Positions 1,623-2,564 of a DNA stretch of 64,000 nucleotides are shown in pieces. Both the position numbers and the translations under genes were made by a program. Positions within the stretch are counted from its first letter, which is position 1. Each line of letters starts with the position of its first letter. The notes below the pieces were generated by a model. The model saw only the letters and a list, made by a program, of their open reading frames with translations. It ran no database searches and had not been told where the DNA came from. Source of the stretch: an uncultured Candidatus Saccharibacteria bacterium (GTDB taxonomy: Bacteria; Patescibacteriota; Minisyncoccia; JBAYJV01); contig CAZNYQ010000008.1 of assembly GCA_964577395.1 (NCBI GenBank), positions 57,319 through 121,318 on the forward strand, written 5' to 3'.

Positions 1623-2564
1623 ATGAAAGAAAATATTAATAAAAATATTAAAAAAGGCGAAATAATAATTTATAAATCTCTAAAAGGACCAGAAATTCAA
1701 GTAAAACTTGATAAGAATACTGTTTGGTTAAATGCTCATTTAATAGCTGATCTTTTCGACGTTCATCGTCCTGCTATAGTTAAACATATTAATAATATAT
1801 ATAAATCAGGTGAGTTGAATAAAAAAACAACCTGTTCCAAAATGGAACAGCTTGCTGCTGATAACAAAATCAGAAAAATAAACTTATATAATCTAGATAT
1901 GATTATTTCTGTAGGTTAAAGTATTTAATTAAAGGATACGCTATAAAAAAAACAGCTTCTTCAGGCTCGCAATCAACTAAAAGATTTAAAAGAAACTGTT
2001 TCTTTGCTTGAAAAAAACTAAAAATAAAATACTTGCTGGGTAAGTTAACGAAATATTAAGTTTATTAGCAAATTACGCTAAGACCTTAAGCTTACTTGAA
2101 CAATATGACAAGGAAAAATTATCGTTAGTTAGAAAGGTTAAAGGAAAATATATCCTGCACTACAATGAAGCAAAAAGAATTATTAGCCAAATCAAAAAGA
2201 ATTAATTGACAGAAAAGAAGCAAGTAACTTATTCGGACAAGAAAACAACAACAAATTAAAAGCAATTTTAGGAAATATTTGTCAATCATTTAATGGTAAA
2301 AAAATATATTCTTCATTAGAAGAAAAAGTTGCATATCTTCTTTATTTTATAATTAAAGATCATCCTTTTGTGGATGGTAATAAAAGGATTGCTTCTATTC
2401 TCTTTATCCATTCTCTAGATAAAAATGATTATCTCTATAAGGCGAGTGGAGGAAAAAAGATTAATGACAATGTTCTAGCTACAATAGCGCTTTTAATTGC
2501 AATAAGTAATCCTGATGAAAAAGGTAAGTTTATTAAATTAATAACTAACTTACTTATTTCCTAA
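1623..2564 (+). pseudogene. RhuM-family / Fic-Doc (Fido) protein, disrupted by frameshifts and stops
   Basis: 1623-1919 encodes a RhuM N-terminal domain (KGEIIIY...VWLNAHLIADLF...KHINNIYKSGEL...YNLDMIISVG) and then hits a stop. The continuation (GYAIKK...) is in another frame. 2182-2564 in a third frame encodes the Doc/Fic core ...LLYFIIKDHPFVDGNKRIASILFI... Confidence 0.75.

Follow-up and report, generated by a model that had tools for sequence, protein, structure and literature searches.

Probable pseudogene of a RhuM-Doc fusion at the edge of a conserved core gene block in a Paceibacterota-like CPR genome

RhuM is often fused to DOC in restriction-modification (R-M) loci (PMC3710099), and genes for a 'Virulence RhuM family protein' are enriched near invertible R-M specificity genes (PMC9881135). 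In the Doc variant of Fido proteins, K takes the place of the second G in the Fic motif, and this variant is associated with kinase rather than NMP-transferase activity (PMC5651007); Doc of phage P1 phosphorylates EF-Tu at T382 and arrests translation (PMC5851678). The RhuM-Doc fusion is listed by PADLOC as candidate phage-defence system PDC-S23; the PDC systems are 145 candidates proposed by 'guilt-by-embedding' (bioRxiv 10.1101/2024.01.29.577857), and a literature search for 'PDC-S23' found nothing.

Here we analysed a stretch of 64 kb (referred to hereafter as the window), together with locus L001, which extends 9 kb upstream of it. As judged from sequence, the host is a Patescibacteria/Paceibacterota-like CPR organism; the best named relatives of its RpoA come from Candidatus Paceibacterota, Portnoybacteria and Azambacteria, with no more than 61-64% identity to the closest RpoA proteins. 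We suggest that positions 1623-2564 on the plus strand of the window are, very probably, the remains of a single-gene RhuM-Doc fusion that was acquired horizontally and then inactivated.

Identity of the remnant and map of its lesions

Joining the readable segments of the remnant gave a translation of ~311-313 aa, which matched 6865 database proteins at E <= 1e-5. The top matches are 331-aa proteins with 63-66% identity, covering 97-98% of the stitched sequence, and the source names of the matches include 'virulence protein RhuM/Fic/DOC family protein', 'RhuM family protein' and 'death-on-curing family toxin'; PF13310 and PF02661 are both present in all database matches listed for the stitched translation. 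At the DNA level, a tblastn comparison of the intact homologue P0003 with positions 1400-2800 of the window gave an E value of 3e-112. The PADLOC profile PDC-S23 matched the stitched sequence with an E value of 7.8e-88 in two stretches lying on either side of a deleted segment, while intact P0003 matched the same profile at E 1.7e-123 over profile positions 4-324 of 327. PDC-S23 calls for one intact ORF, which the window copy lacks.

Pfam Fic (PF02661) scored 38.7-39.6 bits against a cut-off of 24, with an E value of 1.9e-9 in the Doc-type remnant, NCBIfam TIGR01550 (DOC_P1) scored 44.8 bits against a cut-off of 38.65, and the C-terminal part of PDC-S23 matched the Doc-type remnant at E 1.4e-45. 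The sequence HPFVDGNKR agrees with the Doc subfamily motif rule HxFx(D/N)(A/G)NKR and aligns with the motif of the Doc-family protein 9vzc in the PDB. PDB sequence and profile searches matched the Doc/Fic region only (9vzc, 3cuc and 3k33) and gave no match to the N-terminal part. An AlphaFold2 model of intact P0003 reached a pLDDT of 44 and a pTM of 0.27, a quality insufficient for further use, the underlying 41-sequence alignment being too uniform (73-97% identity). Taken together, the tblastn, Pfam Fic, TIGR01550 and PDC-S23 results bear out a preliminary description of this DNA, made from the letters alone, which had read positions 1623-2564 as a RhuM/Fic-Doc toxin-like remnant. The Pfam models that it had named as a check gave a divided answer, with Fic/Doc above its cut-off and Virulence_RhuM (PF13310) below it, at 15.7-19.5 bits against 33.7 and over model positions 2-35 of 252 only.

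Lesions were mapped by frameshift-aware protein-to-DNA alignment with the intact homologues P0003 and P0031, which agree with each other, and the three-frame translation of positions 1560-2640 was examined alongside (Table 1). Five lesions are apparent: a 58-nt net deletion, three small indels in poly-A runs and one nonsense codon, as a result of which the reading frame runs 0-2-0-1-0 along the remnant, i.e. it changes four times. The largest lesion removes, directly after ...ISVG, the invariant RhuM signature GYRVNSxxATxFRxWAT (YRVNSKRATQFRIWATK(TL)), and the deleted columns are invariant or at least 97% conserved in 120 homologues. The position of the nonsense codon is occupied by Q in at least 97% of the same 120 intact homologues. 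The N-terminal ORF preceding the deletion matches PADLOC PDC-S05 and the N-terminal region of PDC-S23 with E values of 1.7e-30 to 8e-28, and its mean identity to the N-terminal parts of homologues is 74%.

Table 1. Coordinates of the segments and lesions of the remnant and of the adjoining direct repeat, in window positions (L001 positions where available)
Feature	Position	Strand	Remarks
N-terminal ORF, 98 aa, ending ...NLYNLDMIISVG and stop	1623-1919	+	frame 0; stop TAA 1917-1919
Junction of 58-nt net deletion (about 19 codons plus 1 nt), shift to frame 2	1917-1918	+	frameshift-aware alignment
Remnant KYLIKGYAI, equivalent to (E)HLVKGYTI of intact proteins	1919-1945	+	frame 2
A8 run, second frame change, net -2 nt	1945-1952	+	back to frame 0
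Remnant KKQLLQARNQLKDLKETVSLLE	1947-2012	+	frame 0
A7 run, third frame change, net -2 nt	2011-2017	+	then frame 1
Remnant containing the nonsense TAA	2014-2199	+	frame 1
Nonsense TAA (CAA to TAA, single C-to-T change)	2041-2043	+	in frame
A5 run, 1-nt deletion, fourth frame change	2194-2198	+	frame 0 from 2202
Doc-type Fido domain remnant	2202-2564	+	frame 0; open stretch from 2187 (2187-2564 contains ...LLYFIIKDHPFVDGNKRIASILFI...)
Catalytic motif HPFVDGNKR	2361-2387	+	Doc-type, K replacing second G of Fic motif
Direct repeat, copy 1: last ~15 codons plus stop, ..EKGKFIKLITNLLIS and stop	2518-2572 (L001 11485-11539)	+	
Direct repeat, copy 2: reads QKDKFIKLITNLLIS, stop lost	3158-3212 (L001 12125-12179)	+	

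This map revises the preliminary description in several respects. Its claims that the middle part continues in another frame and that HPFVDGNKR is flanked by LLYFIIKD and IASILFI agree with what we see in the translation and the alignment. It had further described the RhuM domain as intact up to a stop at 1920; the ORF and its stop do exist, yet the domain is not intact, as PF13310 stays under its cut-off and the ORF stops where YRVNSKRATQFRIWATK should begin, in a segment that has been deleted. The Doc core had been placed in a third frame and in fact shares the frame of the N-terminal ORF, positions 1623 and 2370 both being 0 mod 3. The nonsense TAA and the deletion of ~20 codons had been overlooked.

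When frame 0 was scanned from position 2187, no ATG, GTG or TTG was found before the GTG at 2370, which lies 3' of the catalytic His. Therefore, the Doc domain cannot be made as a separate protein, and the 64-aa ORF reported by gene callers at 2370-2564 is a fragment of the Doc part.

The following course of events very probably accounts for these features. The ancestral protein would have been ~331 aa long, with a RhuM-type region at its N-terminus, made up of about 95 aa and the invariant GYRVNSxxATxFRxWAT signature, a helical linker and a C-terminal Doc-type Fido domain. By analogy with Doc of phage P1, the latter would arrest growth by phosphorylating EF-Tu or another translation factor, plausibly in the service of abortive infection or addiction. 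The gene would have entered the host lineage by horizontal acquisition, as its closest relatives are found in unrelated phyla: named sources of homologues comprise Thermodesulfovibrio, Omnitrophica, Ignavibacterium, Spirochaetota, Planctomycetes and Patescibacteria, and the 120 best homologues share a mean mutual identity of 78%, compared with 61-64% between the host's RpoA and its nearest relatives. Inactivation would then have proceeded through the 58-nt loss of the RhuM signature, the three poly-A-associated indels and the CAA-to-TAA mutation, so that today the 98-aa N-terminal ORF is the only part still translatable.

Decay of the gene and alternative explanations

Signs of relaxed constraint are visible beyond the five lesions. 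At columns that are at least 97% conserved among the 120 intact homologues, the remnant carries 9 substitutions and 13 deleted positions, whereas the intact homologues themselves average 0.76 substitutions and never exceed 4. At the 58 invariant columns it carries 2 substitutions and 7 deletions, with 0 in any homologue. Part of the excess at conserved sites arises because no other member of the set diverges as far as the window copy (mean identity 67% vs 77%). The GC content of the remnant is 26.2%, compared to 31.4% for the window, which places it at the 7th percentile; the excess of conserved-site substitutions and the low GC content fit neutral decay with a drift toward AT. A scan of positions 1400-2750 gave no more promoter-like sites than expected from shuffled sequence, and two terminator-like sites were seen, both on the minus strand and within the pseudogene.

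It may be asked whether the gene is dead as a toxin while its 98-aa ORF has been kept as a small functional protein with a DNA-binding, regulatory or decoy role. The ORF has remained intact and retains an ATG despite AT-rich surroundings in which stops are common, and it is matched by stand-alone PDC-S05 profiles of 82-87 residues (PDLC04884, 04883, 04861 and 04881) with E values of 1e-21 to 1e-24; these short PADLOC profiles, however, may themselves come from fragmented genes. Changes at conserved columns are also scarcer in the N-terminal part (1/37) than in the rest (7/62), but not significantly so (Fisher p = 0.25, or 0.09 at a 90% threshold), and the N-domain is the more conserved one in intact homologues too (83% vs 74%). 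Further to that, the end of the ORF is an accidental stop formed by the deletion junction. We consider retention of a functional 98-aa protein unlikely and favour decay of the RhuM-Doc gene as a whole.

A different concern is that the frameshifts could be homopolymer sequencing or assembly errors in a gene that is really intact, given that three of the four frame changes fall in A8, A7 and A5 runs. The flanking YbaK-like protein occurs on 10 contigs, and four of these loci were examined: three from JGI samples (3300077563, 3300077317 and 3300077522), which may be siblings from one project, and one from the Logan assembly of SRR1179181. All four separately assembled datasets, one of them from a different pipeline, match the window at 100% identity over 2.2-11.5 kb, and gene calling yielded the same 98-aa and 64-aa fragments in every one of them (4/4). 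This is not what a one-off assembly error would give. Moreover, neither the 58-nt deletion of an invariant motif nor the TAA nonsense codon is a homopolymer-type error, and the ORF would still be broken after correction of all three poly-A sites. An error-based explanation is thus very improbable, and the pseudogene status proposed in the preliminary description is substantiated by the four frame changes, the nonsense codon and the 20-codon deletion recurring in the four datasets. As the evidence consists of assembled contigs, population polymorphism at the poly-A runs may exist. The decayed gene also explains the public 98-aa and 64-aa 'hypothetical protein' calls, which are fragments of one dead RhuM-Doc gene.

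TAA terminates 54 of the 64 long ORFs in the window, where coding density is 89%, and is thus not a sense codon here. For this reason, and because four separate shifts plus read-through would be needed for a product still devoid of the invariant RhuM signature, we give next to no credence to a rescue by recoding (slippage at poly-A runs, TAA read-through or TAA decoded as Gln), even though slippage is possible at the A8 and A7 runs and Gln is replaced by an in-frame TAA both here and in the L013 copy described below. Speaking further against recoding, CAA to TAA is a single C-to-T change and plausibly a frequent way for a stop to arise in an AT-rich genome.

Genomic setting and a second dead copy

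The immediate neighbours of the pseudogene are a YbaK-like tRNA_edit gene and the gene for a 175-aa membrane protein. Used as a query in genome contigs, the YbaK-like neighbour gave only one distant match, from Anaerolinea, at 34% identity. Further upstream, the genes of L001 run from a type II methyltransferase through a GmrSD/HNH-type restriction enzyme to a 567-aa ABC-type ATPase, followed by a GC-rich segment with a minus-strand 86-aa ORF, a HAD hydrolase, the YbaK-like gene and the pseudogene. The methyltransferase is EcoRI-like (PADLOC MTase_II, E 1e-115), the GmrSD_N/HNH restriction enzyme matches REase_II at E 5e-81, and the best PADLOC matches of the ATPase are mad3, AriA and ATPase-Toprim. 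The type II R-M pair and the ABC ATPase lie 2.5-6.5 kb upstream of the pseudogene; the defence-type cluster occupies L001 3872-7884, between 5.1 and 1.1 kb ahead of the first window position.

Several intergenic elements in this region are GC-rich in an otherwise 31% GC genome (window 655-750 and 905-980; L001 7878-8007, 8085-8200 and 8750-8850), and they yielded no Rfam or tRNA match. They include a tandem 65-nt GC-rich unit (L001 7878-8007) and a 49-nt repeat whose copies (L001 8800-8848 and window 702-750; 88% identical) lie on either side of the HAD hydrolase gene. The elements give rise to spurious short ORFs at window 649-789. The 86-aa ORF (L001 8336-8596, minus strand), for which no Pfam or PADLOC match was found, lies in a segment whose GC content of 40-44% clearly exceeds the mean of the genome, and this segment looks like recently acquired foreign DNA. 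Rfam and tRNA scans of the window and of L001 gave no hit, so a tRNA-linked island boundary is not indicated.

Downstream, the 3' end of the remnant forms one copy of a 55-nt direct repeat whose two copies are 52/55 identical with one gap and lie 640 nt apart; the 3' ends of other homologues reach only 62-78% identity in their DNA. A search of the 64-kb window for a second RhuM-Doc copy returned nothing besides the 13-aa echo at 3157-3195. The repeats bracket a 585-nt segment encoding the 175-aa protein (2640-3167), whose stop codon falls within copy 2. A repeat bracketing an unrelated segment indicates that the locus has been rearranged at least once, and the repeat could stem from an insertion accompanied by a long duplication, be an att-like site or be a remnant. 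Tandem duplication was considered as a source of the segment and rejected, as comparison with the body of the gene revealed no similarity (score 32 against a shuffle mean of 27.9 +/- 2.9). The 175-aa ORF matched only itself in a word-based search, while a full HMMER search recovered ~40 remote relatives of similar length; it belongs to a small uncharacterised family of ~180 aa, and its strong hydrophobicity suggests a membrane protein. These remote relatives stand in unrelated housekeeping contexts, and the ORF was accordingly rejected as a partner of RhuM-Doc.

Syntenic relatives of the region were reached via RpoA homologues. A block running on the plus strand from window position 5518 to about 33158 (ybeY-ftsA-ftsZ-rpoA-rplQ-rplM-rpsI-(EPSP-synthase-fold enzyme)-mreB-rpsL-rpsG-fusA-tuf-rpsJ...) begins about 3 kb downstream of the pseudogene and is strictly syntenic: every gene from ybeY to rpsJ keeps its place in each of the four relatives examined (4/4), whose RpoA proteins are 56-64% identical. 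Upstream of ybeY everything differs among the four, synteny breaking immediately 5' of that gene. Four small genes lie between the pseudogene and ybeY (175, 197, 203 and 97 aa; window 2640-5223). None of the four gave a Pfam match above threshold, and only the 203-aa gene has a positional homologue in relatives (34.5% identity in L013, weaker in L019 and L020). Since the block is collinear and the region upstream of ybeY is variable, the pseudogene lies at the edge of the core block and not inside it. The preliminary view of an eroding accessory locus inside a core region was therefore right as to the eroding accessory part and needs correction as to the location. In this poorly known CPR lineage, the pseudogene marks where a variable, defence-rich region gives way to a conserved core block.

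A second RhuM-Doc gene is present in one of the related Paceibacterota-like genomes (L013 2191-3183, on a 768-kb contig from JGI 3300028920; RpoA 64% identical to that of the host), about 3.5 kb upstream of ybeY. It lies in a single frame and is interrupted by a TAA at the invariant Q239. The window copy is 43% identical to the L013 copy and 66% identical to homologues from other phyla, so the two copies were most likely acquired independently and inactivated independently. The locus thus provides one example of a decayed gene, with a second in a relative, within a small and densely coded genome. Two genomes with independent dead copies and differing lesions are also the basis for a broader conjecture, namely that the region upstream of ybeY is a recurrent landing site for RhuM-Doc genes, with repeated inactivation, in a Paceibacterota-like lineage. 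We regard this as quite improbable. Were it true, it would hint that Doc-type toxins come at a cost to ultra-small CPR cells; the 98-aa ORF might then have been kept for a regulatory or decoy role, and the duplicated 55 nt might represent an att-like site of recombination.

Comparison with known RhuM and Doc systems

The contexts of three intact homologues were examined. P0003 lies in a DISARM/R-M-like island with an M78/DUF4411 pair. P0031 adjoins a gene of the nucleotidyltransferase family and a small ORF without annotation, which may form a toxin-antitoxin pair and together with it interrupt an ABC-transporter gene cluster, and P0103 adjoins an IS3-type transposase. These contexts, the listing as PDC-S23 and the reported RhuM-DOC fusions in R-M loci (PMC3710099) are all in keeping with the earlier statement that islands and R-M neighbourhoods typically carry RhuM/Doc proteins as cargo. 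The three homologues (P0003, P0031 and P0103) have no small partner gene in common, as expected of a single-gene system and contrary to a pair of the Phd/Doc type.

Compared with RhuM of Salmonella SPI-3 and other PF13310 proteins, the likeness lies in the intact homologues, which carry PF13310, and in the 98-aa N-terminus, which matches the start of the model as well as PDC-S05. The window copy differs in remaining under the PF13310 cut-off and in the deletion of its signature motif, and classical RhuM proteins differ from RhuM-Doc in being without a Doc domain.

With Doc of phage P1, the EF-Tu Thr382 kinase of the Phd/Doc type II toxin-antitoxin system, the remnant shares a Doc-type motif and a TIGR01550 score above cut-off, and the Doc proteins in the PDB (9vzc, 3k33) give weak sequence matches to it. 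Unlike P1 Doc, neither the window copy nor the intact homologues examined have an adjoining Phd-like antitoxin, and the Doc domain of the window copy is fused to a RhuM/linker region of ~200 aa, its target and activity being putative.

The closest described systems are the RhuM-DOC fusions themselves. The window copy departs from them in being broken, with its signature deleted, four frame changes and a nonsense codon, so that it cannot encode the protein. The features that it shares with them are these: it is collinear with fusions such as P0003 of Thermodesulfovibrio thiophilus over 97-98% of its length at 65-66% identity, has the same HPFVDGNKR and, like RhuM-DOC fusions and PDC-S23, has restriction-modification and other defence-type genes nearby. 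We conclude that the decayed copy involves no new mechanism and is an ordinary pseudogene from a toxin/defence-candidate family that is already known and has been widely transferred.
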